From sequence record PZ445448.1: a DNA stretch of 64,000 bases. One strand, written 5' to 3'. Positions within the stretch are counted from its first letter, which is position 1. The number at the start of each line of letters is the position of its first letter. The notes below the pieces were generated by a model. That model saw nothing but the letters and a program-made list of their open reading frames with translations. It made no database searches and was not told where the DNA came from. This DNA is from a phage. The position numbers and the translations under genes were made by a program. Shown here piece by piece: positions 540-64,000 of the stretch.

Positions 540-2607
540 ATTTATGGCATCTGCATACAACCGTTTCGGTGAGCCAAACCCGAAAGCAACTAAGTATAAA
601 AGTGGGGGAAGTGTGAAACGAGACTATCGTGATGAAAAAGAGGTTGAAACTGTAGAGACTGTTTTAGAAAATACTAAAATTGTCCCTGTCCCACAACAAA
701 ATATCGGTCTGATGGCTGCACAATATTTTGGTGTGCGATCAGCATTGTCACAAGAAGACGGTGTGACAGTCACTGCAACATATTTCCCATATTACGACCG
801 CTACGGAAATCTGTCCGGTTTCAAAAAGCGTGACTGGACTATTCCTAAAGAACAAAGGGGCCACTTCTCCGTTGTTGGCATCGTAAAGGCCAACTCCCAG
901 ATGTTTGGTCAAAAGCTGTGTGCATCTTCCAACAACCGTAAGCAGATTAACGTTTGTGAGGGAGAAGGTGATGTTATTGCAGCATGGCAGGCTGCATATC
1001 AGATACAAGTAAAAGGGATTCTCACCAACGCTAAAGCCCCGGCAAAGGTGAAGCAGTGGGCTAAAGAGGTCCAGGACGGGATCGACGCAGTTATCAACGG
1101 TGGTGATCTGGCAGGAAAACCCTGCCTGCCTTTTGTTGGAATTAACTGTGGATGTGCAAACGCAGTAGATACTTTTGCAAACAATGAGAAGTTTATCCGT
1201 AGCTATGGAACAGTTGTGCTGGCAATGGATAACGATGCAGCTAACGAGGTAGAGAAGCAAAAACACGTCATTAAAGGTGTTGAGGCCACGCACAATATCG
1301 CAGCATTTTTGATGGCTGATAACGTTTACCACGTAGAATACCCTGGTGAAGTAAATGACCCTGACGGGGTAAAAGATATCCGTGACATGCTGAAGGCTAA
1401 AAAGCTGGAAGATATTGTCAACATGTTCCGGCACCCTGTTAAATATGTGCCTGATGCTGTGTCGGATTTAGAAGACTTCTCTATCGAGTCTTTGCGGAAA
1501 AAGACTTCCAACGGGGTAGATATCAGCGCAGAGTTCCCAAAACTGCAAAAAATGCTAAAAGGCTTGCACAAAGGGACACTCGTAATGCTTACAGGGCCAT
1601 CAGGGGGCGGTAAAACAACTGTAGCTAAAAAACTGGAACATTGTATTGCAAGATACCTAATGGACCCGACATGCCCGAAGGCTGATGACTATGAAGAGGA
1701 TGATCGTCTATGTATGATCCATCTTGAGGAGGACCCAGAGGAAGCAATTAACTCCTTGTATGCAAACCAGTTAGGGTTTGATGTTAAAGAGTTTGTTGAA
1801 GATCCTAGCCAGTTTTTAACTGATCAAGAACACGCAGAGATTCACCAATCATGGGCAAAAGCTGGAAAAATCAAAGTGTTCAAACATTTCGGATCTATTC
1901 CGGTGGACGAGTTGATTACCAAGCTTAAGCAAATGGTTTGCCTGTACCATTGCCGTTATATTGTGCTGGATCACCTGTCCATGGTAATTTCAGGGCTTAA
2001 TGTTAAGGATGAGCGAAAAGAACTGGACATGGCTATGACTCAGCTGGCTGCGTTTTGTAAGCAGTTTAACGTGTTTATCTTGGTGATCGCTCACCTCAAA
2101 CGTACAGAGATTGTGCCTCCTAAGGACAAGGATGGTAACCCGTTACCTTTCTGGTATCCTGTGCGAAAAGAGAATTTGCGAGGATCGGCGGGGCTTGAAC
2201 AGTTGAGTTGGGTAGTCATAGGTGTCGAGGCCGAAGAAATGGTGGATCGTTCTCGTGGACGTGTCCGTCTGGTAGGTCTTAAAAACCGTCCAGCAAAAAC
2301 TCTAGGTATTGCTGACACTTTGGTTATGGACCCGCACACAGGTAAGTTCCATGATGCCAGTAATTGGTACTGGGACAAAGAAATGCAAATGTTTACAGAC
2401 GGAGAAGGTGGGGAGGTTGTTTGGAGACCTCAGGCTATGTTTGAGGATCAGGAGCATGCAGTTGTAGAAACACCTATGGGCAAGGTTGTGGCTGATAAGG
2501 TTGTAACTCCTACTGTTAAGCCTGTTGACACGCAGGAAGACCTCCAGTACGATGATCCATCCTCTGACCCGGTCCCTGGTTTTGAGGATGATGAAACGCC
2601 TTTTTAA
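529..2607 (+). CDS. DNA primase-helicase (TOPRIM + DnaB/T7 gp4-like helicase)
   Basis: TOPRIM-like CEGEGD and MDNDAANE; Walker A GPSGGGKTT; Walker B IVLDHLS; acidic C-terminus ending ...EDDETPF. Confidence 0.8.
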   Translation: MGSKFMASAYNRFGEPNPKATKYKSGGSVKRDYRDEKEVETVETVLENTKIVPVPQQNIGLMAAQYFGVRSALSQEDGVTVTATYFPYYDRYGNLSGFKKRDWTIPKEQRGHFSVVGIVKANSQMFGQKLCASSNNRKQINVCEGEGDVIAAWQAAYQIQVKGILTNAKAPAKVKQWAKEVQDGIDAVINGGDLAGKPCLPFVGINCGCANAVDTFANNEKFIRSYGTVVLAMDNDAANEVEKQKHVIKGVEATHNIAAFLMADNVYHVEYPGEVNDPDGVKDIRDMLKAKKLEDIVNMFRHPVKYVPDAVSDLEDFSIESLRKKTSNGVDISAEFPKLQKMLKGLHKGTLVMLTGPSGGGKTTVAKKLEHCIARYLMDPTCPKADDYEEDDRLCMIHLEEDPEEAINSLYANQLGFDVKEFVEDPSQFLTDQEHAEIHQSWAKAGKIKVFKHFGSIPVDELITKLKQMVCLYHCRYIVLDHLSMVISGLNVKDERKELDMAMTQLAAFCKQFNVFILVIAHLKRTEIVPPKDKDGNPLPFWYPVRKENLRGSAGLEQLSWVVIGVEAEEMVDRSRGRVRLVGLKNRPAKTLGIADTLVMDPHTGKFHDASNWYWDKEMQMFTDGEGGEVVWRPQAMFEDQEHAVVETPMGKVVADKVVTPTVKPVDTQEDLQYDDPSSDPVPGFEDDETPF

Positions 2608-2669
2608 TGTTTAACAAAGAGTGGGAGGGGTAGTACAACCGCCTCCCCTTTAAGGAGAACGTTTATACT

Positions 2670-5093
2670 ATGAGTATGTGGAATTTTGACTTTGAGGCCT
2701 CAGGTCTTCTGGACGAGGAAGATCTTTACTACCATTGTGGCCTGTTTAAAGAGTTGAATAAAAATAATTTTATGTTGTTTTTGCCTATCAATGATAGATC
2801 TCATTACAGTGAAGAGGAGGTTGAAAAAGCAAAACAATTTATGCTGGCAAAGCAAGATATCTATCCTAGCTGCTCTGTCCGTATTGCGGATTTCAGCCAG
2901 CTTGAATGGTGGTTAACCGGGAACTCCGATTGGTCACCCACATCATTAAGTTGTCACAACTGTTTTAGTTATGACTTTATCTTGATGGAGAAGCTGTCTG
3001 GTATTCATTTTGATATGTTCCGTGATCCCAAGTGTATGGGGACAATCAATAATCATCAGGTGAACCTGTTCGACACTCTGCCAATGAGTCGTATACTATG
3101 GCCCGACAGACCGTTACCTAAAGGATGCCCTGATTCTGTATACAATCCTGTTACAAAACGTATGCAGCAGGTAGGTCCTCATGGCCTAATGGCGTGGGGG
3201 TACGCTTTAGGAAACCAGAAGGTTAAAATTGATGACTGGAGAAATTTACCTCTGTGGAAGTATGTTGATCGTGTATTCGAGGACGTTATCATCCAGGAGC
3301 TGCTCTGGAAAGAGCTGGTAGCGGAATCAAAAGGTGTATTCTACGGCAAATCTGACATGCAGAACTTTATGTACGATCCAGCCAAAGAGAAGCCGAAAGG
3401 GTTCAAGAAGATTACCTGGAAGAATGCATTACGCCGAGGCATGCTGCAGCATTTCCTGATGGAGCTGCAGGCTCGACAGGGTGTGTATTTCGACATAGAT
3501 GGGGCTATTGCTTTACGTGACCGCTGCGATGCGTGGATGAAAGAGATCGCTGATCGTGTTGAACCACAACTTCCTTTAAAAGAGTTATCAATGTCTCAGC
3601 GGCCTAAGTTCCCTGAAAAGCCGTTTAACCAGGATGGGACAATCTCCAATAATGGTTGGAAATGGTTAAAAGACAAGCTTGGCTACCCTGTGGACATGAG
3701 TGCTTTAGAATTCAAAGCTCCTCCTAAGCGAGCATTTACCTCCACAGGAGATGTCAGTAAGATGGGGATAAAATGGTGTGAAGAGATGGGCTGTAAAGAC
3801 CCTGATAAGATGGCGGATTTCTTGAGGGGCTATATCAAGGGCACCTCCACACCACAACCTTTACCTAAAGAGCTAATGGATCAGGCAATAAGTGATCTAC
3901 AGCAGAAGCGAATGCCTGACTGCAAGATACCTATGAAAATCAGCAATCAGGACGATATTAAGCGATACCTGATCAGTGCTGGTTGGCTTCCGACAATGTG
4001 GAGAACTAAGGATGTAACTAAAGACAGCAAGAAGAAAGCTCTACCTGATGCAGATGTTGATGCACGAGTGTATGCATATATGGACGAGCTTTTAGAGTCA
4101 GAGTATTGTGACCTAATTATCAACTTCTGGAACAAAACTGATGCTAAGTTCCAGACAACCGTGCACAAGTTCCGAAGCTTTCCTAACTCCGAAAGGATTA
4201 AAAAGGAAGTATTCGGGAAAATACGTAGAAAAGCTAGGGCACTTATTACTTCTCCGCAACTGAAAGATACGTTTGGACACCTATGCCCGAATCTTGAAAA
4301 ATTGAACGGAGAGATGGCTAAAGATATCGTCTTGTGGTTATCATTGCGAAACCGCAGATCGGTCCTTGATCCAATCAAGGAGGATAAGGTTGATACTGGT
4401 CTTCTTAATCACCCACGTTTGAAGATTGACCATAAGCTTCCTGCTAAAAGTTCTGGATTAACAAACACTTCCCGACAGAAACATAGTATTTGTGCAAACA
4501 TGCCTAAACCATCTCCTAAAGTGGTTATGGGTAAAGAGATGCGTAGTCTGTGGGGTGTTCCTCCAGGATACTTTGAGATCGGTATTGACGGGTCCAACTT
4601 AGAGCAGCTTATCGGGGCTTGGGGTGCCTTTGAGTTCGACAACGGCCTGTATTACGATGTTGTAAGTAACGGGGACGCACACCAAAACAATGCTGAGGCA
4701 TATACAAAAGTAGCAGGTAGAGAGGTGTCTCGTAACGACGGTAAACCTATCACGTATGGGGTTATGTATGGGGCACAAAAAGATAAAGTTGCAGATATGC
4801 TGGACATCTCTCCAGAGTTGGGACAAAGGGTAATCGATGCACTCTGGGATGCCAACCCTGGTCTTAAGGGGCGTAAAGAAGATCTGGAGAAATTCTGGGA
4901 AGCAACGGGTAAGAAGTTTATCTACTCTTTTGATGGTCATGCTATCTGGACCCGATCTAAACACTCTTTACTTAATGCATACCAACAAAATGGCGGCGCA
5001 TCGTTGTGTGACTTAGTTGGGATACTCATGCACCATCAAATGGTGAAGCGTGGGTGGTACGATGAAGGTGTTCGTCGTATTATCTATTACCAT
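2670..5093 (+). CDS. DNA polymerase, family A, exon 1 (3'-5' exo + polymerase motifs, ends before motif C)
   Basis: N-terminal FDFEASGL (DnaQ-like Exo I); motif B-like KPITYGVMYGAQ; ORF stops one codon after ...RRIIYYH; SD aaggag upstream. Confidence 0.8.
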
Positions 5094-5935
5094 AAATAAC
5101 ATTGTGGCTTCGTGCAGTGATGCACGTCGAAAACCTCTTTAATTGACGGGAAGGCTAAGTTGACTTTTACACCTAAACATGGTAAAAGCTCAATATGCTA
5201 ATCCGCAGCGAAGACTAAAGGGGTGTAGTTAAAATGGCTAGATCAGTTGAGTATCACGGATATACCGTGTTTGATGATGGAACAATACCTTTATCGAAAC
5301 GTGATCATACAACAATGTTTTGTTTTGATAATGGTCGAGGTTACCTTTGCGTAACCATGTTCATCGAGGGGAAGCAGTGCACAAAAGGTGTCCACCACTT
5401 GGTTGCTGAATGCTTTGTATCAAACCCTGATCCTGAAAGGCTCACATGGGTGAACCATAAGGACGGAAACAAATACAACAATGCATACTGGAACCTTGAA
5501 TGGACCACCCCTGGTGGAAATATCAAACACGCTTATGATAATGACCTCAGAGTAAGGCCAGTCGGTGAGTATAATGCCAACGCTGTACTGACCGAGGATG
5601 AGGTAACGGAGATTTGCGAACTGTTACAAAGTGGTTTACGACAATGCGAGATTAGGGATCTTGGGTATCCTTATGAGACGGTCAGAGCCATAAAGCAAAG
5701 AAGACAGTGGAAACATATCTCTAAAAACTACACCTGGTAGTAACGTTCAGAGACTATCGAAAGCATAGCGCCAACATAAATTGGTGCGAAGAAGCGAGTA
5801 GAGTAGACCAGCAAGTGCGGTCGAAATGGGAGGTGCCTTGGTAACAAGGTAGTGAGATAGTCCGATCCATACAGGAAACTGTATGGCTGTGCACGTAATG
5901 GTGCGGGGTAGCTTAACGACCTACCTGAACTATTG
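5094..5935 (+). mobile_element. putative group I intron with HNH homing endonuclease ORF, inserted at polymerase motif C
   Basis: Exon ends in U (5093), insert ends in G (5935); GACUA and UAGUC strings in 3' part; flanking ORFs rejoin in frame as YYH|DEYQ. Confidence 0.6.
5234..5740 (+). CDS. HNH homing endonuclease
   Basis: HHLVAECF...VNHKDGNKYNNAYWNLEW HNH motif; lies inside the insert splitting the polymerase gene. Confidence 0.75.
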   Translation: MARSVEYHGYTVFDDGTIPLSKRDHTTMFCFDNGRGYLCVTMFIEGKQCTKGVHHLVAECFVSNPDPERLTWVNHKDGNKYNNAYWNLEWTTPGGNIKHAYDNDLRVRPVGEYNANAVLTEDEVTEICELLQSGLRQCEIRDLGYPYETVRAIKQRRQWKHISKNYTW

Positions 5936-7496: not shown

Positions 7497-7751
7497 ATGA
7501 AAATCATGTTGAAACCAGAATGCGTTGCAAACGACCGAGCTTTTAAAGATTGCACACTTGGCGCTACTTATGAAGCAGAGTTTTGTGAGAACCCTTTGGT
7601 AAAAGCCCTTTTGGAAGAAGGGGCCCCTCTATCACAAGAAGAGCTTGATGAGCTGGAAAACTCAGCACAGTGCCTTACCTTTAAAGATGATGAAGGAGAC
7701 TCTGTCTGGTGCACTGTTAACGAAGTAGTTTTTGTAAAAACTGAACATTAA
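7497..7751 (+). CDS. hypothetical protein, paralog of 7815..8075
   Basis: Shares AFKDCT and DDEGD..WCT motifs with the next gene; SD aaggaga. Confidence 0.55.
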   Translation: MKIMLKPECVANDRAFKDCTLGATYEAEFCENPLVKALLEEGAPLSQEELDELENSAQCLTFKDDEGDSVWCTVNEVVFVKTEH

Positions 7752-7754
7752 TAC

Positions 7755-7783
7755 TTGACAACAGCGATAGGACCTAATACAAT
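7755..7783 (+). promoter_or_regulatory. sigma70-like promoter
   Basis: TTGACA-17 bp-TACAAT, overlapping GGACC...GGTCC hairpin. Confidence 0.45.
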
Positions 7784-7814
7784 GGTCCTATCAAAACGAA
7801 AGGGGACCACAGCA

Positions 7815-8075
7815 ATGACCAAACAATATCAACGAATTAAAGCCAAGGTTAAGCCAGACTATCTAGAGAAGGACTCTGCTTTTCGGGACTGCACAGCTGA
7901 CAAAGTTTACACAGGGGCCGTCCTGTTGAACGATAAACTTGAAGTAGATGTGCTGGGTAAAGAGGCCGTTATCGAGGATGACAACGGTGACTGTGTTTTC
8001 TGCACCACACGAGAGCTAGAAGTCTTAGAATATTTCGGTGAAATCTTCAACTCCTTAGACGACGAGGAAGCGTGA
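7815..8075 (+). CDS. hypothetical protein, paralog of 7497..7751
   Basis: Start set at ATG after aaggggacc SD; AFRDCT and DDNGDCVFCT motifs. Confidence 0.5.
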   Translation: MTKQYQRIKAKVKPDYLEKDSAFRDCTADKVYTGAVLLNDKLEVDVLGKEAVIEDDNGDCVFCTTRELEVLEYFGEIFNSLDDEEA

Positions 8076-8464
8076 TGAAAAATATTTGGGATATCGATAT
8101 CTTTGAAGCCTCTAAGCTTGACGGTGCTGATGGAGTGATTATGGTGTCTGATGGCAAGGCAACACTAACTTCCGGAGATATCATCTATGCCTTGGACGAG
8201 CTGGCGCTTCTGAAATCTACCGGTAACACTTTGGAGGAGCGTCTTCAAGGATTCGCTTTCAAAGAAGGTACAAATACAGCCATGATGTGCACCACACGGA
8301 CAGTTCAGGTTGGTAACGGTGTCTATATGATTATTGCTGTGTGTCCTAAATTCAGCAACGTCAACAAAGATGATGCTGACGCGGTCAACGATGTGGTTGT
8401 TCTCTTCGTGGGTGACGCTATGGCAGATCTGATGAATGCAGGAGAAGCAGCAAATGAAGACTGA
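8072..8464 (+). CDS. hypothetical protein
   Basis: 130-aa ORF, ATGA overlap with upstream gene. Confidence 0.5.
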   Translation: MMKNIWDIDIFEASKLDGADGVIMVSDGKATLTSGDIIYALDELALLKSTGNTLEERLQGFAFKEGTNTAMMCTTRTVQVGNGVYMIIAVCPKFSNVNKDDADAVNDVVVLFVGDAMADLMNAGEAANED

Positions 8465-9102: not shown

Positions 9103-9471
9103 ATGGAACAAATGAACGATCAAGAGTCGGTTGCGATGAACGAGCAAGAACAACCTCAAGAATTTTTCTTAGGGTTAAGTAAAGATCAAGTGTCTCTTTT
9201 GCTAGTGCTTTCTTCTTTCATGGGAAGACTTCAGGAGCTCACACAACAACCGGAGGCTGAACAATTATTTCAGGCTCTGCGTGAAGAAGAAAAATATCGT
9301 CGTTTGGACTATGCCTTAGGTTGGGTAGCTCAACAACGAGATATGCTGATGGCCCTCTCTGGGACCACAAGTTTTGCAATGGGCCTGTTGGCTCAAGTTC
9401 AGGACAAATTAATTCAAGCAGGGTTTGCACACACGGCAAACACTAACGAAGAACAAGGAGACAAAGAATGA
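9103..9471 (+). CDS. hypothetical protein
   Basis: 122-aa ORF; SD ggagattcc. Confidence 0.5.
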   Translation: MEQMNDQESVAMNEQEQPQEFFLGLSKDQVSLLLVLSSFMGRLQELTQQPEAEQLFQALREEEKYRRLDYALGWVAQQRDMLMALSGTTSFAMGLLAQVQDKLIQAGFAHTANTNEEQGDKE

Positions 9472-10694
9472 GCGTTATTCAACAATTCGCTAACCCGATG
9501 AATCCGCGTGAAACTGTTTTACTGGCTCACGGCATGATTAAACGCGTCAGCATCAAGCCTATCAAAGGTGCTGATCCTACAACAGGTATTAAAACCACTG
9601 TGTGGCAAGGTAAGAAAATTGAATCCAGCCACACCATCTCTTTACTGATTTCTGAACTGGATTCCTCTGATAACCTACTTCAAGGTGGTGAAGAAGTTTG
9701 GATCAGTATGGGCGATAAGCTGCTTAAACCGGGTCATCAAGACTCTGTCTCTGTTAAAATTGATGACAAGTGGGAAACCGTAACGCCAGGATGGATCGTA
9801 AATATCCCTTTGAAGGCAAACGAGCATAACGGTAAGACCTACTACAAAGGCTCACTGGCTAAGATGGTTAAGCTGGGTGCAGGAGAGGCTCCAGCAGCGA
9901 CTCAGCAGCAAAAACAGCAACAAGGTGCACAATCACAAGGCCAGAAGCAGAAACCTCAGCAGAATGCCAATCAGGACGTTTTACGCATCTATGGTGATGT
10001 GACTCAGATTGTTGGCAACGTGGTTACTGTAAATGATCACAAGATTGGCGAAGGTGCTATGGTTGTAACTGATGAGCAGCTTAAAGACCTGGTGGTAGGT
10101 GGTCGTGTTGCAGCCATTGTGGACAAAGACACCGGAAACATTATCAGTGGTTTCAAAGCCTACCCACCTAAGGCAGAGAACGGCACTCAAGGCCCTGGTG
10201 GCAAGCGTAAATCCTCTTACGACCCTATTGGTGTGGAGACGGGGCATAGCATCAATGCGTTGCAGATCATCCTGGATCGTGGGTTTAAGGTAGACGACCC
10301 ACTAGGCGTGGCTAAAACACTGCACGTAGTCACCATCGAGCTTAAGAAAGAGTATGCTCAAGCCACCAACCGAACTGAAGATGAAGTAGGTGCCAGTGTC
10401 GGTAATGCGGTGTTGAACGCTTGTCGCCGTATTGACAAGAAAACGAAAGTTGATGATTTTGCAGCGGCAATTACTGCAGAAGCAAAAGATGTCTTGACTA
10501 ATCTGGCTGAGCCGTTGTACGATTGGATCAAGAACGGTGCTGGGTCAACTGACCATCAAGAACCTCAGGCTGCCAAACAGGAAGCAGCTCCACAGCAAAA
10601 CACTGTAGACGCTCCTCCTGTAAATGATGGGGAAGATGACCCGATGGATCAGAATCCAGCACAGTATGACTTCTGTGATGACATACCGTTTTAA
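9468..10694 (+). CDS. putative ssDNA-binding protein with SSB-like acidic C-terminal tail
   Basis: 408 aa; Q-rich linker (QQQKQQQGAQSQGQKQKPQQ); C-terminus ...YDFCDDIPF resembling E. coli SSB tip DDDIPF. Confidence 0.45.
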   Translation: MSVIQQFANPMNPRETVLLAHGMIKRVSIKPIKGADPTTGIKTTVWQGKKIESSHTISLLISELDSSDNLLQGGEEVWISMGDKLLKPGHQDSVSVKIDDKWETVTPGWIVNIPLKANEHNGKTYYKGSLAKMVKLGAGEAPAATQQQKQQQGAQSQGQKQKPQQNANQDVLRIYGDVTQIVGNVVTVNDHKIGEGAMVVTDEQLKDLVVGGRVAAIVDKDTGNIISGFKAYPPKAENGTQGPGGKRKSSYDPIGVETGHSINALQIILDRGFKVDDPLGVAKTLHVVTIELKKEYAQATNRTEDEVGASVGNAVLNACRRIDKKTKVDDFAAAITAEAKDVLTNLAEPLYDWIKNGAGSTDHQEPQAAKQEAAPQQNTVDAPPVNDGEDDPMDQNPAQYDFCDDIPF

Positions 10695-10705
10695 CAATTA
10701 GTTAA

Positions 10706-10738
10706 CATAGCCCTGCCCGAAAGGGTGGGGCATTTTTG
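10706..10738 (+). terminator. stem-loop plus T-run after SSB-like gene
   Basis: gccctgcccgaaagggtggggc followed by atttttg. Confidence 0.4.
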
Positions 10739-10756
10739 TATAAGGAGATCTGAAAA

Positions 10757-11173
10757 ATGACATTAGAAGATATCATTGTTAAACCTGAGAACTATGACCA
10801 ATACAACCTGTCAACTCAATCTGTAGACCTTGGATGCGCCACAGTTAGTGCGTGGCTGGTTAATGGAAAAGAGCTGGACAAGTGCTTAGAAGCTCACATG
10901 TCTGTTAACAAGTTTCTGGATGAAAATACTCACTGGCTTGAGGGTGCTGGAGTATATGCTTCATGGTTGGAGAGCATGGGCTTTGACTATCAATCTGATG
11001 AAGGGTGGTGGAGCTATCTAGCTATCTGTCCAGAAACACTGCAATGCTTCATGAAATACTCTGAAGATCTTGAGTACCGGGCGGTGGTTGATAGTGCTAT
11101 TGCCCGTTATAGCCGTAAACCTTTTTCCCATGACATTAAAACTGTGGAAGAATTTGTTGAAGTTTTCTGTTGA
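10757..11173 (+). CDS. hypothetical protein
   Basis: 138-aa ORF; SD aaggagatc. Confidence 0.5.
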   Translation: MTLEDIIVKPENYDQYNLSTQSVDLGCATVSAWLVNGKELDKCLEAHMSVNKFLDENTHWLEGAGVYASWLESMGFDYQSDEGWWSYLAICPETLQCFMKYSEDLEYRAVVDSAIARYSRKPFSHDIKTVEEFVEVFC

Positions 11174-11198
11174 CACAGGTTGAAAGGTGTGCAATTAT
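11170..11198 (+). promoter_or_regulatory. sigma70-like promoter
   Basis: TTGACA-17 bp-AATTAT(AA). Confidence 0.4.
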
Positions 11199-11269
11199 AA
11201 CTTCATAAAACGGGAGGACGTGATGAACGAAGAAAACTGGGATGTATAACTAACAGGAGGCCACTGCCC

Positions 11270-11467
11270 ATGATTTATCGAATCCGTGTAAGAGAAGATG
11301 CACCAGGCTGTTACTTTGACTGGCGTGGGTGGTGGTTTCTCCACCCAATGGATGGACTCACAGATAGAATGCTGGATGCTGCCCTTTATACAGATACCGA
11401 CATAGAGTATAATCTTTATCTGAAGGATGGTATAGATAACGGCCTGTTTGAAGCAATTCCTGTGTAA
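11270..11467 (+). CDS. hypothetical protein
   Basis: 65-aa ORF; SD aggaggcc. Confidence 0.4.
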   Translation: MIYRIRVREDAPGCYFDWRGWWFLHPMDGLTDRMLDAALYTDTDIEYNLYLKDGIDNGLFEAIPV

Positions 11468-11592
11468 GAGACTGTGATAGCCATGTTTTATGATCTTCCT
11501 GTAGCACCACCTGTTGAACCTGGAGAACTAAGATGATCTATGAAATGCCAAAATTGATCCGTGACGATGCCTAAAACGCTCACACCATTATT

Positions 11593-11958
11593 ATGGGCAA
11601 ACGCATGGATATTATTTGTCATAAAGATTTCTGGGAAGGAAGTTACTTCACAGAATATTTTGGTAAACTGGACAATGGTCTGCTGATCCAGTTCTACACC
11701 GATGCGGAAAACAACATTCACTGGGAGTTCGAAACTGAAGATATCCATAAACTTTTCACCTTCCTCGGTATTAAGGTTGAGGCCAAGTTTGAAGAAGGTG
11801 AGTGCGACGATTGTGGATTCTATGAGGTAACAGATTTCTATCTCCCGAGTGGTGAGAACCTTTACTATGAGAGTCACTTCGGAAACACCAACATGCCTCA
11901 AAGCTGGGAAGAATTTTTCAGTATCGTAGAAGAGGAGCTGGCATACCGTGATTATTGA
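11593..11958 (+). CDS. hypothetical protein
   Basis: 121-aa acidic ORF. Confidence 0.45.
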   Translation: MGKRMDIICHKDFWEGSYFTEYFGKLDNGLLIQFYTDAENNIHWEFETEDIHKLFTFLGIKVEAKFEEGECDDCGFYEVTDFYLPSGENLYYESHFGNTNMPQSWEEFFSIVEEELAYRDY

Positions 11959-12406
11959 TACTGTAAAGGGAGATTTAATCTCCCTTTTTAAGAGCGGTGC
12001 TGGTCACCTAATCCACGGTTGTAACTGCTTCCACACAATGGGTAAGGGCATAGCAAAACAGATTGCCCGTGAGTTTCCTCAAGCATTGTCAGCCGACAAA
12101 GAGACCAGACACGGTTGCCTAAGTAAACTGGGTGCGTTCTCCCGATGGGAGCACTTATCTCCGAGAGGTATTGTCTACGGAATCAATCTGTATACTCAGT
12201 TCTACCCAGGGCCTAATGCTGAATATTTCTCAATCCTGAAAGGCTTTGAGCTAGTCAATGAGGTATTCGAGGGATCGACTTTACCATTCTACATCCCTAA
12301 GATCGGGTGCGGCATAGGCGGTTTGAAGTGGGAGCACGTAGAGGACGTTATTAACCTCGCCACTTTTGATATAGATATTATCGTGGTGGAGTACAAAGAG
12401 TGTTGA
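11948..12406 (+). CDS. macro-domain-like protein (ADP-ribose binding/processing)
   Basis: GDLISL...HLIHGCNCFHTMGKGIAKQIAREFP resembles macro domain VNAAN...GGGV..AI core. Confidence 0.45.
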   Translation: MIIDTVKGDLISLFKSGAGHLIHGCNCFHTMGKGIAKQIAREFPQALSADKETRHGCLSKLGAFSRWEHLSPRGIVYGINLYTQFYPGPNAEYFSILKGFELVNEVFEGSTLPFYIPKIGCGIGGLKWEHVEDVINLATFDIDIIVVEYKEC

Positions 12407-12431
12407 CAGCCGACTTTTGAGATGGTATAGT
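12403..12431 (+). promoter_or_regulatory. sigma70-like promoter
   Basis: TTGACA-17 bp-TATAGT overlapping macro gene stop. Confidence 0.5.
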
Positions 12432-12462
12432 CACCACAACGATTGAGAGAGGGAGCACCACT

Positions 12463-12663
12463 ATGGAGACTAAAATCTTAATTCTGGCTGTGATAGATAC
12501 GACCGAAGGGGCCGTGTTCGAATCTGCAGGAGGGTATTTCTACCTGCCCTACGGAAAAATAACTTCCGAACCGAGTAAAGATTCAATCCTTAAAGTGTTC
12601 CCTTGTGCTTTCTGGCTGGAGATTCTAGTAGAAGATTGCAGAGGATTGGGGAGAGAATTATGA
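12463..12663 (+). CDS. hypothetical protein
   Basis: 66-aa ORF with SD agagaggg. Confidence 0.35.
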   Translation: METKILILAVIDTTEGAVFESAGGYFYLPYGKITSEPSKDSILKVFPCAFWLEILVEDCRGLGREL

Positions 12664-12854
12664 GAAACAAGAAAGAGCTTTATTCTGGCGAGTGGATCAA
12701 CGATCAACAGGTCGGAGAGGTAACCTGCTTCCGGTGTTTTACTCGGTACAATCTTAAAACTGCACCAAAAAGTGTTCCAAAGACTGACGGTTATTACATA
12801 AAAGAACCTCATTGCCCAAAATGTAAATGCCGATTGTACTGGAGCAATCTATAA
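12660..12854 (+). CDS. small zinc-ribbon protein
   Basis: CFRC ... CPKCKC pairs; SD ggggagag before ATG 12660. Confidence 0.5.
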   Translation: MRNKKELYSGEWINDQQVGEVTCFRCFTRYNLKTAPKSVPKTDGYYIKEPHCPKCKCRLYWSNL

Positions 12855-12858
12855 GAGG

Positions 12859-12886
12859 TTGACATCTGAAAACTGCAGTGTATAGT
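12859..12886 (+). promoter_or_regulatory. sigma70-like promoter
   Basis: TTGACA-16 bp-TATAGT. Confidence 0.5.
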
Positions 12887-12917
12887 ATACGCATAAACTA
12901 ACAGAGAGCGATGTATT

Positions 12918-13109
12918 ATGGTAATTTTTAACCGGGATGGTATCATAGTTAGACAGCACCCGTTCCTTGAATACTATCAAATTGAGCAATGGTGCTACGG
13001 GGATTGCAGTCACTCCTATGGGCAAAGTTGGGGATATCGCACAGTTTTTGAATCAACAGACCTTGACAAAGTAAGACAGAAAGTTTTAGAACTTATTAAC
13101 AACAAGTGA
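12918..13109 (+). CDS. hypothetical protein
   Basis: 63-aa ORF. Confidence 0.45.
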   Translation: MVIFNRDGIIVRQHPFLEYYQIEQWCYGDCSHSYGQSWGYRTVFESTDLDKVRQKVLELINNK

Positions 13110-13118
13110 GTATGATAT

Positions 13119-13451
13119 ATGGTAACATTAGAAAGACGTAAAGCTATCGCCGCCACACTGGCAGACATCTTTTGGGATTGCAACTTAAAAGATACCAGAA
13201 ATTGTGGCGCATCTGTAGATGTATTATTCCCACGGCCCACCATTGTTGCAATGGGAAACCTGTTAAACGTAGTGTACGGAGCATGGGACAAAGAAGGTGG
13301 ATTCTATATCTGGCAACCTGACTACGGAGCCTGGAAAGAGGTAAGGGGTGCGGATGACTTTGGGCCTACAGTTGCTAAGATGGATGGCTGGGAAATTTAT
13401 GTTGGAAACGACATGAAGCTGAAAGGCGAGATTGTTTACTGGTTACCTTAA
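13119..13451 (+). CDS. hypothetical protein
   Basis: 110-aa ORF. Confidence 0.5.
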   Translation: MVTLERRKAIAATLADIFWDCNLKDTRNCGASVDVLFPRPTIVAMGNLLNVVYGAWDKEGGFYIWQPDYGAWKEVRGADDFGPTVAKMDGWEIYVGNDMKLKGEIVYWLP

Positions 13452-13471
13452 GAAAGTGCAGGAGATAAAGT

Positions 13472-13717
13472 ATGAACAAAGGGTGGACATTTGTAGACGG
13501 CGTTAAAAACATGCCTCTAGGAAAGTATATCGTAGCCATGGCTGATGAGGATGGCAATGTAGATTTCGGAGCTTGCGAGGTTGTTCTTGCAGGATCTGGT
13601 AACTATGTGAGTAAAACCGGGATAATTAACGGTCAGTTCTACTTTGATCACAACCCTGTTGTAGCGTATATGGCTATGCCAGAGTTCAAGTTCCCAAAGG
13701 AGGGTGCAGATGTTTAA
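13472..13717 (+). CDS. hypothetical protein
   Basis: 81-aa ORF; SD aggaga. Confidence 0.5.
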   Translation: MNKGWTFVDGVKNMPLGKYIVAMADEDGNVDFGACEVVLAGSGNYVSKTGIINGQFYFDHNPVVAYMAMPEFKFPKEGADV

Positions 13718-44146: not shown

Positions 44147-45409
44147 TCAGCAACCACAACTTCCGTAGTGCTTAACTCGCTCGATAACTTCCGCTTGCTT
44201 ACCTTTATTGTAAGGACGGGAGTTAGGACTGGAAAGATATCCAGACACTCTTCGGATCACTGAGATATATTGTTCATCGTGGCATCCGCACGCAGGGCAG
44301 CAGAACCCTTTAGCTGTTGCACTGAACTCACCAGAGAAACCACACTTGAGACATTTATCCACAGGTTGGTTAATACCAAAATACATAATGTGTTTATACC
44401 CGAAGTCAACAAGAGCCTCTAAAGCATCCAAGTTGTTTTTCAGGTTAGGTGTCTCTACGTATCCGATGTTGCCACCAGAGGAGATCATAGCAAAACCTTC
44501 CTCATACTCCCACTTATCAAAAGGAGAGCTATTTATCCATACTGGCTGATGGAAACTGTTGGTGAGATATTCATGCTCGTGCTTCAACACTTCCGGATAT
44601 TCACGATCCAGACAGGTTGCAGCTTTATAGCATAGACTCTCAGAAGGAGTGCCGTACAAGCTAAACGCTAGTCTACTTTCCTTCTTGTATCGCTCACAAG
44701 CATCTCTCATGTGCTGAAGGATTCCAAGAGCTAAAGCCTTGTCACCCTCTCTACCCAAAATCTGACAGGTTTCATACACACCAATATACCCAATACTGAT
44801 GGAAGCGTACCCGTCATAGAAGAGTTTATCAATACTCTCTTCAGGATCCAGGCGAGCAAGAGCTCCTTCACACCACATGATTGGGTTCTGCCCTGCCTTT
44901 GTTCCTTTTAGACGGTTAACCCTTACAAGGTGAGCCTCGTATGCAAGATCCAAGTATTCGTCAAGAACTGCAAAGAAATCAACACCTTCCGTCTTAGCTT
45001 TTGCCGCAATCATTGGTAGGTTAAGGCTAACAACGCCTAAGTTAAATCTGCCAAGATATTTCTCCTCGCCTGTTTCCAAGTCACTGTATTTGCTAAGAAA
45101 ACTCCGGCAACCCATGCTCGTTACTTTGCCATCTGTCGAGCCTGTCACTTTTCTATTTAGTGGTACAGATACGAAGTCAGGGTAGATACGTTCTGCACAG
45201 CATTCCAGAGCTAATCGTTTCAAATCATAGTTAGGATCCTCAGGGTTCATGTTGACACCCTCTTCTAGGAAGAACAGCACTTTAGGGAACACAGGTGTGA
45301 TCCGTTCTTCACCAAGACCCATTTTGTGGACTTTCAAGTAATTTTTGGTAATCATTCTACCAAAGACCGAGGTATCCAGTCCTAAACTTAATGTGATAAA
45401 AGGGGTTTG
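44147..45409 (-). CDS. nrdD: anaerobic ribonucleoside-triphosphate reductase, exon 2
   Basis: C-terminal CCPACGC zinc site and glycyl-radical RVSGYL; frame open upstream of track Met to Q codon at 45409. Confidence 0.8.
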   Translation of the reverse strand, partial: QTPFITLSLGLDTSVFGRMITKNYLKVHKMGLGEERITPVFPKVLFFLEEGVNMNPEDPNYDLKRLALECCAERIYPDFVSVPLNRKVTGSTDGKVTSMGCRSFLSKYSDLETGEEKYLGRFNLGVVSLNLPMIAAKAKTEGVDFFAVLDEYLDLAYEAHLVRVNRLKGTKAGQNPIMWCEGALARLDPEESIDKLFYDGYASISIGYIGVYETCQILGREGDKALALGILQHMRDACERYKKESRLAFSLYGTPSESLCYKAATCLDREYPEVLKHEHEYLTNSFHQPVWINSSPFDKWEYEEGFAMISSGGNIGYVETPNLKNNLDALEALVDFGYKHIMYFGINQPVDKCLKCGFSGEFSATAKGFCCPACGCHDEQYISVIRRVSGYLSSPNSRPYNKGKQAEVIERVKHYGSCGC

Positions 45410-45666
45410 CGGTCCCCACCCTTATGTTTCCACAAGGCCAGACTATCTCTTGCCTGAAATCACACCGTGTGATTCTTAATCAGACCCCTGCGTTTCGGAA
45501 TCTTCCATAATCCCTACACCAAAAGGTTAGTCGTTACAACCGCCTCACTCCTTGTGAAGCTAGTCACGGGATTGGCATAGCTTTCGCCTTAGCGTTCCCC
45601 GTTAGCCAGCGATCAGCTGACCCCTCATACTAAGGTTAGCAGAGTTTTAAAACGGCCAGTTTGTTA
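45410..45666 (-). mobile_element. ORF-less group I intron in nrdD
   Basis: Exon 1 ends in U, intron ends in G; ACGGGGAAC...CAAUCCCGUG and GACUA/UAGUC core strings; splice gives ...LTSVNG|QTPF... Confidence 0.75.
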
Positions 45667-46527
45667 ACCGTTTACCGAGGTTAGTGTGTTGATCTGATAA
45701 AGCAACGTCTGCATGCTGTCAAACACGTCTTTATCTGTCATTTGCATTGCAACAGTCTCAGCATCTGGCAACCAATGTTCCTGGCAAAATTTAAGGTTCT
45801 TCTCATAAGTCGCCTCAGCATACTGTGCCAAATAATGGTCAATATGGCTCATAGTCTGACCCCCATATTGAGCACTAGCTACTGCACTAGAGATTTGGCT
45901 AAGGATTGTTGTTGCAACCCCTATTGACTTCGGCTTACTGACATGGGCGTTACCAATGTTGAATCCGTTTTCCAACATATCTGGATAATTTACCAAACAA
46001 CAGTTTGTTAACGGACTGATCAAGTAGTCAAGATCATGCACATGGATGAAGCCTTTATTGTGCTCTTCTGAAACACGGTCTGGCAGGATCTGTGTTGATG
46101 CAAGGTGTTTGCTAAGGATGCCTGCAAGCAGGTCACGATGAGTGTGTACATGATTGGTAGGCTTATTTGCGTTTTCTTTTGTAAATTCATCACAAGTTCG
46201 ATCCAAGAAGCCACTAATATCTGCAAGCAGTTTTCCACCTGCCTCTCTGTTATTATCTCTTGTCTGTCTATACTGGATGTATTCTCTGGCTGCACATTTT
46301 AAACCCATATCCATAAGAGCATCTTCAACAAGGATATGGATATTTTTTACAGAGATCGTGCACTGGTCGGTTGGTAGATTGTTAGCAACAACTTCATTAA
46401 CCGCGCAGGCGATCCGGTAAGCTTCTTCTTCAGTATGTCCAGACTCAAGTAAGGCGGACTCTGCCGCCTTGATCACCTTAATTCCGTTATAGAACTCTTC
46501 TCTACCGTCCCGTTTTACAACTTTCAC
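45667..46527 (-). CDS. nrdD: anaerobic ribonucleoside-triphosphate reductase, exon 1
   Basis: N-terminal ATP-cone-like MKVVKRDGREEFYNGIKV; ORF stop lies 1 codon past proposed 5' splice site. Confidence 0.8.
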
Positions 46528-63367: not shown

Positions 63368-64000
63368 TTAAAGTTCCATAAAGTTTTCTACAGTTTCAAT
63401 AAATGCTTTATCAGAGAAAGCGTCAACAGCACCGTTAAACCATACAGGGATCCCGCGATCCTCATATTGATAAAGGTCGCTACGTGAAATGCCACTTCCA
63501 TCTGCACTCTGCGAATCATACTTGTTTACAATCAGCAGTTTTGTGCCTTTACAAGTAGCAGGAAACAATTCCCAGTTAAAATTAATAACTGTGTTAGAAC
63601 AACCTACCAGGATCACCATATCATTGCTTGTGAGAGATGTCAACAGGTCATACATGTCTGTATACTTAGGAGCAACCTCACCGAAGAACACTACATTGGG
63701 CTTAACCCAGGTATACTTGCCTGTATCTACCTCCGTGTATCCGATATTTTTAATTACATCATTACCTTCAGCATCTTCGTAGGTGATTTCAGGCAAATAC
63801 CCGTGGACATGTAAAATATCTTCATGTTTTACACCAGCACGCTCCAGCAAATCATCTACATTGGTAGTAAGGTTGATCACACGACCAGACCAGCGGGAAT
63901 ACCACTCAGCGATCCGAAGATGTGCAAGGTTAGGATCAACACTGCCCAGAGCTACACGACGTGCATTGTAAAAGTCATGCACCTTATAGTAGTTCTTGGC
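63368..64000 (-). CDS. Sir2-family protein (5' end beyond window)
   Basis: LTTNVDDLLERAG, HVHG, PNVVFFGE, VILVGCS match sirtuin motifs; reading frame stays open to window edge. Confidence 0.55.
   Translation of the reverse strand, partial: AKNYYKVHDFYNARRVALGSVDPNLAHLRIAEWYSRWSGRVINLTTNVDDLLERAGVKHEDILHVHGYLPEITYEDAEGNDVIKNIGYTEVDTGKYTWVKPNVVFFGEVAPKYTDMYDLLTSLTSNDMVILVGCSNTVINFNWELFPATCKGTKLLIVNKYDSQSADGSGISRSDLYQYEDRGIPVWFNGAVDAFSDKAFIETVENFMEL

Follow-up and report, generated by a model that had tools for sequence, protein, structure and literature searches.

What does a solitary macrodomain do for a phage of Escherichia coli? The question is raised by an open reading frame (ORF) at 11948..12406 of sequence record PZ445448.1, of which a stretch of 64,000 nucleotides (nt), hereafter the window, was analysed. 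The source phage is a Vequintavirus, an rV5-like E. coli myovirus that is 98.6% identical to phage isim. An earlier note, made from the letters of the window, had described the ORF product as a macro-domain-like protein among early genes and as a possible counter-defence enzyme. The evidence assembled here points to an enzyme that would remove ADP-ribose (ADPr) installed by DarT2 from phage DNA, a reading that we favour with moderate confidence. The counter-defence role of the family was already published in 2025-2026, and the gene described here (the macro gene, encoding the macro protein) most likely adds a Vequintavirus member to it.

A genuine macrodomain of the T4 Tk.4 family

The ORF listing gives a frame at exactly 11948..12406 (+) that encodes 152 amino acids (aa) plus a stop, and the peptide quoted in the earlier note, HLIHGCNCFHTMGKGIAKQIAREFP, was recovered as residues 20-44 of its product. 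This product is confirmed as a genuine macrodomain by profile, fold and pocket residues. The Macro profile search that the earlier note had proposed returned Pfam PF01661 at 28.5 bits against a gathering threshold of 22 (E 1.6e-6; residues 22-53 matched), a domain that is precomputed on most homologs as well, and the match to PHROG 335 was far stronger (E 2.9e-60). An AlphaFold2 (AF2) model built from 62 homologs reached a pLDDT of 96.6 and a pTM of 0.91 and, together with Foldseek, predicts a three-layer alpha/beta/alpha macro fold. Foldseek placed TARG1, Poa1p, DarG, BT1257 and SCO6735 at the top with probability 1.00 and TM scores up to 0.82, TARG1 being the top structural match (E 2e-10) and Poa1p scoring E 3e-9; 168 Protein Data Bank (PDB) chains were matched at E <= 1e-3, nearly all of the best 50 being macrodomains (top TM 0.75-0.82). 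Both the profile match and the fold, whose absence the earlier note had named as grounds for abandoning the assignment, are thus present. In sequence, the best PDB match by phmmer was the M. tuberculosis DarG macrodomain (E 8e-8), and further matches were obtained to Poa1p, BT1257, SCO6735, T. aquaticus DarG and human OARD1/TARG1. The protein is most likely a small standalone macrodomain of the TARG1/ALC1-like class and, judging by its conserved residues, catalytically competent.

The closest characterized relative is Tk.4 of phage T4, with 40% identity over the full length (residues 1-150; E 8e-42). The two proteins have the motifs HGCNCFHTMG.G, NLYTQF.PGPN and P.IG.GIG in common, and both carry the signature HG[CA]NC ... 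NxYTQ ... PxIG[CA]G with Gln at the catalytic position. By full-length homology, signature and PHROG 335, the macro protein belongs with T4 Tk.4. Both are standalone phage macrodomains of about 150 aa, and both weakly match the macrodomain part of DarG models: PADLOC gave DarG as the only match of the macro protein (E 3.3e-14, 51 bits; 36 bits for T4 Tk.4), and its best NCBIfam match was antitoxin_DarG. They differ in their setting, as T4 belongs to the Straboviridae and the phage studied here to the Vequintavirinae, and there is no shared synteny, tk.4 lying between tk.3 and vs whereas the macro gene lies in a V5-specific array of genes of unknown function.

There are 2,726 phage records with a homolog, and 4,587 clusters (50% identity) were matched at E <= 1e-3; many of the homologs are the Tk.4 gene that adjoins vs in T4-like phages. 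Residue conservation was counted over 249 family members and revealed the near-invariant signature H-G-C-N-C ... N-x-Y-T-Q ... P-x-I-G-x-G. N26 is present in all 249 (H23 in 243, G24 in 247), Q84 in 247, N80 in 248 and Y82 in 247. Loop 1 is conserved at G34 (248/249), A36 (246/249) and, to a lesser extent, G32 (219/249), and loop 2 at G120 (248/249), G122 (244/249) and P117 (246/249). The ADP-ribose pocket, consisting of the conserved Asn, G32-x-G34 and G120-x-G122-x-x-G125, is thus near-invariant in the family. The motif sketched in the earlier note, 'N...GGG...AI', is only a rough likeness of these elements, as loop 1 reads M31-G32-K33-G34-I35-A36, that is, G-K-G rather than GGG. In profile and multiple alignments, the Q84 column holds the catalytic Lys in TARG1 (K84) and DarG (K80) and Gln in SCO6735 (Q85) and BT1257; at the position of the TARG1 catalytic D125 the macro protein has G124, so that this Asp is absent.

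Selection on the gene was assessed against phage JES2013, where about 7 synonymous and 8 non-synonymous changes give a ratio of non-synonymous to synonymous rates (dN/dS) of about 0.3. All changes fall outside the motifs, and the ORF is intact in about 119 V5-like genomes; the ratio indicates that the gene is under purifying selection. Deposited relatives are variously labelled 'macro domain protein', 'phosphatase', 'hypothetical' and 'O-acetyl-ADP-ribose deacetylase', which are transferred names and not tests. Replication or repair genes are present in the neighbourhoods of divergent homologs, and no recurring partner gene was found in the neighbourhoods examined.

A probable counter-defence role against DarT2

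The functional case starts with T4. The tk.4 gene was the single T4 gene in HIDEN-SEQ that became essential on a DarTG2 host, a clean knockout sensitised T4 specifically to DarTG2, and the gene was renamed adfM, for anti-DarT factor Macrodomain (10.1101/2025.11.20.689424). The suggestion of a possible counter-defence enzyme in the earlier note gains weight from the 40% identity to this protein and its DarTG2-specific phenotype, the function in the present phage being extrapolated from them. It is also backed by a more distant phage macrodomain, PhiKZ gp104, independently named AdfM in 2026, which removes DarT2-made ADP-ribose linked to thymidine (T-ADPr) from single-stranded DNA (ssDNA) in vitro in an N23-dependent manner and whose deletion leads to loss of DarTG2 resistance (PMC13309987).

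Observations from other phages point the same way. The ortholog in phage Bas54 (bas54_0092), which is 82% identical to the macro protein, tolerated insertions at 31 of its 31 TA sites and was scored 'Non-essential' on E. coli K-12 by HIDEN-SEQ. It shares this dispensability on K-12 with T4 tk.4, and it is what would be expected of a conditionally needed gene. Phage T5 is DarTG2-sensitive (10.1101/2025.11.20.689424; PMC11825919), and no macrodomain of the Gln-type family was found in the six frames of its 121,750 bp, the best E-value of the family hidden Markov model (HMM) being 0.046 against 9.7e-61 in the window. T5 without the macrodomain is thus sensitive while T4 is resistant via tk.4, a contrast that supports an anti-DarTG2 role. 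Other Vequintavirinae carry the NADAR protein AdfN against DarTG1 (PMC11825919), and DarT systems accordingly exert pressure on this phage group.

The most instructive enzyme for the likely chemistry is SCO6735. It cleaves T-ADPr on ssDNA with high turnover and protects against DarT though it lies outside any DarTG operon; replacement of its Gln (Q85A, Q85E) abolishes activity and N27S nearly does so, and the mechanism proposed for it is mediated by water and does not depend on a Lys (PMC9411070). Residues H24, N27, Q85, G126 and G128 of SCO6735 (5E3B) correspond to H23, N26, Q84, G120 and G122 of the macro protein, and with BT1257 (2FG1) the likeness extends to the TARG1/ALC1 class, Gln in place of the catalytic Lys and the His-x-x-Asn and IGCG elements. 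The 'orphan' logic is also similar, in that DarT is neutralised without membership in a DarTG operon. Differences are equally clear: identity is 25-26%, SCO6735 and BT1257 are bacterial chromosomal rather than phage genes, and they read N-M-I-G-Q where the phage family reads N-L-Y-T-Q.

In the mechanism that we propose, the enzyme would be made early in infection by host RNA polymerase (RNAP) and act as an 'orphan antitoxin' against host DarT2. It would bind the ADP-ribose that DarT2 puts on thymidines in single-stranded phage DNA and hydrolyse the base-ribose bond, giving back normal thymidine, so that replication could proceed in hosts with DarTG2. The chemistry would follow the SCO6735 route rather than the lysine route of DarG and TARG1: the invariant Gln84, held by the invariant Asn26, may bring the distal ribose and the transition state into place for water attack, while loop 1 (G32-K-G34) and loop 2 (G120-C-G122-I-G-G125) would clamp the diphosphate.

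Membership in the better known macrodomain types was considered and rejected in each case. DarG itself (M. tuberculosis 5M3I, T. aquaticus 5M31/5M3E) has the same fold (TM 0.73-0.76), the Asn (N22 in DarG) and both Gly loops, and its substrate class is the one proposed here. However, DarG uses Lys80 (FPTK) where the macro protein has Gln84, it has a C-terminal DarT-binding domain and a total length of about 330-340 aa whereas the macro protein is macro fold throughout its 152 aa, and it is encoded beside DarT. The NCBIfam model of the DarTG2 antitoxin (NF048014), which has a cut-off of 250 bits, gave the macro protein a score of 48.5 and matched it only over profile positions 2-143 of 338; below the cut-off and without the Lys, the C-terminal domain or a DarT gene among the five on each side, the macro protein is not DarG as modelled there or in PADLOC PDLC02990. 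PhiKZ gp104 is likewise a standalone phage macrodomain that counters DarTG2 with an essential Asn (N23), but it is of the Lys type (MFPTK, K78) and scores 133 bits with PADLOC DarG compared with 51 for the macro protein; given also 20% identity and Gln for Lys, membership in the PhiKZ type was rejected. PhiKZ gp104 is a late protein that is taken up into the phage nucleus by import (PMC13309987). TARG1/OARD1 and Poa1p share the compact, roughly 150-aa ALC1-like macro fold, but TARG1 has Ser for the Asn, and its Lys84/Asp125 dyad is replaced by Q84 and G124 in the macro protein, which excludes TARG1 proper. A MacroD/YmdB type, to which the labels 'RNase III inhibitor' and 'O-acetyl-ADP-ribose deacetylase' refer, was rejected as well, because N26-CFHTM-GKGIA has no Asp after the Gly loop, as compared with the Nx6GG[VLI]D and G[VIA][YF]G motifs of that type; no MacroD-type structure was among the top 25 Foldseek matches, the nearest of which are all ALC1/TARG1-like. 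Because the T4/V5-type AdfM has an SCO6735-like Gln site and not the Lys of DarG, it forms a subfamily apart from the PhiKZ protein, and the name 'AdfM', by these sequence comparisons, covers two macrodomain subfamilies, one Lys-type and DarG-like (PhiKZ), the other Gln-type and SCO6735-like (T4, V5).

Several points weigh against the proposed role. The evidence for T4 Tk.4 is genetic, T-ADPr removal from DNA having been proposed and not assayed (10.1101/2025.11.20.689424), and a DarTG2 phenotype in the Gln-type family is known from T4 alone. Sixty per cent of residues differ between the macro protein and T4 Tk.4, a distance over which substrate specificity can shift. Biochemical proof exists for PhiKZ gp104, which belongs to the other, Lys-type subfamily (20-22% identity, E 7e-5). 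The family profile scores BT1257 at 72 bits, DarG at 65.5, SCO6735 at 64.5, TARG1 at 63.9 and Poa1p at 62.6; because it is about equally distant from these five macrodomains (72-62 bits), the substrate is not fixed by homology alone. Pairwise identity of the macro protein is 25-28% to each of the five, with no clear preference in overall sequence for SCO6735 and BT1257 over DarG, TARG1 and Poa1p. After the Gln, the macro protein has a loop that falls short of the mobile loop of SCO6735 by 6-7 residues and has no equivalent of its K89. By residue count the protein is net acidic, which does not make it an evident DNA binder. Passages of the Bas54 library were confined to K-12 and two clinical strains, and a phage-encoded sirtuin could generate other macrodomain substrates.

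If the anti-DarT2 role is correct, rV5-like phages used in E. coli phage-therapy and biocontrol cocktails would have a built-in eraser of DarT2 DNA damage. This would help to predict host range on DarTG-carrying strains; some relatives also carry a NADAR protein against DarTG1. Two AdfM solutions, Lys-type and Gln-type, would also matter for mechanism studies and for attempts at inhibitors.

Other substrates and the phage sirtuin

Among the alternatives, one that we regard as improbable but worth setting out in full is that the macro protein is a Poa1p-like ADP-ribose-1''-phosphate (ADPr-1''P) phosphatase, or a processor of soluble ADPr derivatives, as the label 'phosphatase' on some relatives would have it, and that it serves an RNA-repair module centred on a phage sirtuin and dependent on nicotinamide adenine dinucleotide (NAD). 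Poa1p, which acts on ADPr-1''-phosphate, is among the best sequence and fold matches, shares the N-terminal segment HxCNC...G.GIA and aligns residue by residue over the N-terminal third. Of the residues probed in Poa1p (with roles as given by PDB entry titles), H23 is conserved, S30 corresponds to T30 and F152 to G124 by hand alignment, the first two being those changed in the deposited mutants H23A and S30A. At the family's invariant Gln position, Poa1p presumably has Ser, which speaks against this alternative. Many macrodomains have weak Appr1p phosphatase activity in vitro without physiological meaning, and this weighs against a Poa1p-like role as well.

The sirtuin part of this alternative is grounded in the genome. 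A Sir2-family gene lies at 63368..>64000 (-), and the sirtuin of phage V5 has been named as the core of a predicted KptA-like RNA repair that releases ADPr>P or ADPr-1''P (Iyer et al., PMC9503650); in addition, one divergent member of the macrodomain family has genes for AlkB, a kinase and an RNA ligase of the T4 type in its vicinity. However, the sirtuin is about 51 kb from the macro gene and on the opposite transcription arm, and the V5 sirtuin was described as uncoupled from any adjacent Macro gene (Iyer et al., PMC9503650). Their distributions are also discordant: T5 has a sirtuin and no Gln-type macrodomain, and T4-like genomes (165-171 kb) account for none of the 30 sirtuin matches listed but for 12 of the 40 macrodomain matches listed. 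These points weaken a coupling of sirtuin and macrodomain, and the sole known phenotype of the T4 ortholog, being DarTG2-specific, also speaks against the Poa1p-like alternative.

Some observations on the sirtuin genes stand on their own. The window holds 63368..64000 (-) of the gene, with a Pfam SIR2 match (E 8.7e-15) covering profile positions 48-178 of 180 and the N-terminus lying beyond the window. Sirtuin homologs occur in 973 phage records and are concentrated in T5-like and V5-like phages. In T5, the product of T5.105 (7588..8094 of the compared stretch) is labelled 'Sir2 (NAD-dependent deacetylase)' and was considered as a hidden macrodomain; this was rejected, as it has a DxDGV HAD-type motif and no family HMM match. 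It starts DIDGVLN, typical of HAD phosphatases, and its gene lies two genes after the real Sir2, T5.102, which fits the sirtuin and HAD neighbourhood of Iyer et al. (PMC9503650). The 'Sir2' label of T5.105 is probably a mis-transferred annotation.

A second alternative, to which we give a similarly small chance, is that the macro protein reverses ADP-ribosylation of protein or RNA, or deacetylates O-acetyl-ADP-ribose (OAADPr), with another host ADP-ribosyltransferase (ART) or the phage sirtuin as the source. The substrates of the top structural match, TARG1/OARD1, include Glu-linked protein ADPr and OAADPr, while those of SCO6735 extend to auto-modified PARP1 and to uracil-linked ADPr on RNA (PMC9411070); some relatives are labelled as deacetylases and a sirtuin is encoded by the same genome. 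These points are met by others: the dyad on which TARG1 relies is replaced, the labels were transferred and are not tests, and neither 2'-OH RNA ADPr nor, by direct assay, 5'-phosphate-linked ADPr is a substrate of SCO6735. In spite of its Tk.4, T4 remains subject to strong restriction by the mRNA ADP-ribosyltransferase CmdTAC, and the mark that CmdTAC leaves is described as irreversible. Pfam and PHROG revealed neither an ART nor a NADAR or NAD-salvage gene in the five genes on each side of the macro gene, and among 40 larger ORFs of the window, searched against Pfam in four scans, there was no ART or NADAR, Sir2 being the only ADPr-related match.

A broader variant would make the Gln-type phage family a mechanistically separate lineage rather than a DarG stripped of its C-terminal part, with a water-activating, Lys-independent site and substrates beyond DarT2-modified DNA, such as uracil-linked ADPr on RNA or ADPr-1''-phosphate from the sirtuin module. 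We consider this doubtful, and of about the same low standing as the two preceding alternatives; if true, such a lineage would link counter-defence with the Vequintavirus' own NAD-consuming chemistry.

Two further roles are the least likely of all. Binding or degradation of NAD-derived immune signals such as Thoeris gcADPR and His-ADPR, as a sponge or a hydrolase, could be imagined because the macrodomain of Thoeris II ThsA binds His-ADPR. It is nevertheless very unlikely, as an earlier prediction to this effect has been contradicted by the two phage cases put to the test, the NADAR AdfN and the macro AdfM, which act against DNA ADP-ribosylation (10.1101/2025.11.20.689424; PMC13309987; PMC11825919), no homology of the macro protein to known anti-Thoeris proteins was seen, and the conserved N26 and Q84 match those of the proven DNA-ADPr hydrolase SCO6735 (PMC9411070). 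Least credible is a non-catalytic ADP-ribose reader or a decaying gene without current function, which the missing textbook Lys of the closest enzyme relatives and the laboratory dispensability of the Bas54 ortholog might suggest, but which is opposed by the essential Gln of SCO6735 (PMC9411070), the near-invariant pocket over 249 members, the low dN/dS with an intact ORF in so many genomes and the clear DarTG2 phenotype of the T4 homolog (10.1101/2025.11.20.689424).

Gene structure, promoters and genome context

The features of the gene and its surroundings are collected in Table 1. The start codon is GTG and the stop TGA, and a Shine-Dalgarno-like AGAGGAG, read from the sequence, lies 10 nt 5' of the GTG. 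The N-terminus MIIDTVKGD aligns with MIVKYIKGD of T4 Tk.4, so that the GTG start is correct. The gene shares 11 nt with the end of the upstream ORF (11593..11958), stop codon included, an arrangement that suggests translational coupling. The upstream ORF (+) encodes 121 aa, and its match to PHROG 8157 begins only at position 21 of the 141 in the profile; a 141-aa version is annotated in JES2013 and Bas54, so that the N-terminus here is shorter or differently started.

Table 1. Positions, strands and supporting evidence of the macro gene, its conserved codons and nearby signals in the window
Feature	Position	Strand	Evidence
CDS, standalone 152-aa macrodomain, entire protein one macro fold	11948..12406	+	ORF, Pfam, PHROG, AF2, Foldseek, Tk.4 identity
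Shine-Dalgarno-like AGAGGAG; upstream ORF stop at 11956-11958	11931..11937	+	sequence
Codons H23-G24-C25-N26: conserved His and invariant Asn, which places the catalytic-site residue and the distal ribose; counterparts SCO6735 H24/V25/N27 and DarG N22	12014..12025	+	family counts, alignments to SCO6735, BT1257 and DarG
Codons G32-K33-G34-I35-A36: loop 1 (GxG), ADP-ribose pocket	12041..12055	+	family counts
Codons N80-L81-Y82-T83-Q84: family signature NxYTQ	12185..12199	+	family counts, profile and multiple alignments
Codons P117-K-I-G120-C-G122-I-G124-G125: Gly-rich loop 2, diphosphate-binding	12296..12322	+	family counts, alignment
Candidate sigma-70 promoter TTGACA-17-AATTAT, extended -10 TG	11170..11198	+	consensus scan
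Near-consensus sigma-70 promoter TTGACA-17-TATAGT with TG	12403..12431	+	consensus scan

The macro gene is located about 7 kb downstream of the DNA polymerase gene, within a long co-directional run of small genes, and a 2.8-kb stretch that includes it is common to about 119 related genomes. Five genes on each side were examined for an operon partner, and none was accepted, the scans giving lineage-specific PHROGs of unknown function and, in one case, a Phage_zn_bind_2 domain. No RNA element in the window reached the Rfam gathering threshold.

A consensus scan for TTGACA-N16-18-TAnnnT detected 17 promoters per strand in the window against 1.4 expected, an enrichment of about 12-fold. Those on the + strand lie at 2.5-25 kb (with an outlier at 56.6 kb) and those on the - strand at 28-64 kb (with an outlier at 1.4 kb), and all but one per strand are co-oriented with the genes of their arm. 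From this layout, the window would span two divergent arms transcribed by host RNAP. The first promoter in Table 1 could drive a three-gene unit at 11270..12406, after a terminator-like hairpin at 10710-10731; the second overlaps the macro stop codon, appears to open the next downstream unit and would mark host-RNAP (early-type) transcription. Judging by this promoter context, the macro gene is most likely transcribed early by host RNA polymerase. The placement among early genes in the earlier note is thus plausible, the sigma-70 promoter enrichment and the run of small genes speaking for it, while the early timing itself is deduced from them.

Other features of the window and its relatives may be recorded. 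Upstream, 9468..10694 (+) encodes a protein of 408 aa, Gln/Lys-rich and of low complexity in its middle and acidic at its tail, which has no Pfam match and falls in PHROG 4477 (unknown function); its Bas54 ortholog, bas54_0087, was scored 'Essential' in HIDEN-SEQ, and the protein may be a replication or ssDNA-binding factor. After this gene, JES2013 (11367..11990) and Bas54 (5015..5638) carry an endonuclease VII or 'putative homing endonuclease' that is missing at window 10694..10757, and JES2013 has an HNH gene before the DNA polymerase gene (3425..4159 of the compared stretch) without a counterpart at window 2607..2670. These endonuclease genes, being present in relatives and absent here, represent a presence/absence polymorphism of mobile endonucleases. 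GenBank has between 16 and 25 'Campylobacter phage' records (MG0656xx, unannotated, with C. jejuni given as host) that share 92-99% identity with the window at 10700..13500 and 63371..64000, and their C. jejuni host label looks doubtful. Finally, nrdD, encoding the anaerobic ribonucleotide reductase, is split into two ORFs at 44147..46527 (-), one with the ATP-cone and NRDD positions 1-154 and the other with NRDD positions 180-562, separated by a gap of 308 nt (45356..45663). A full-length but sub-threshold match to the group I intron model of Rfam, RF00028, was obtained in this gap at 45420..45676 (-) (29.8 bits against a gathering threshold of 50, E 9.5e-6), and nrdD probably contains a group I intron, as in T4.

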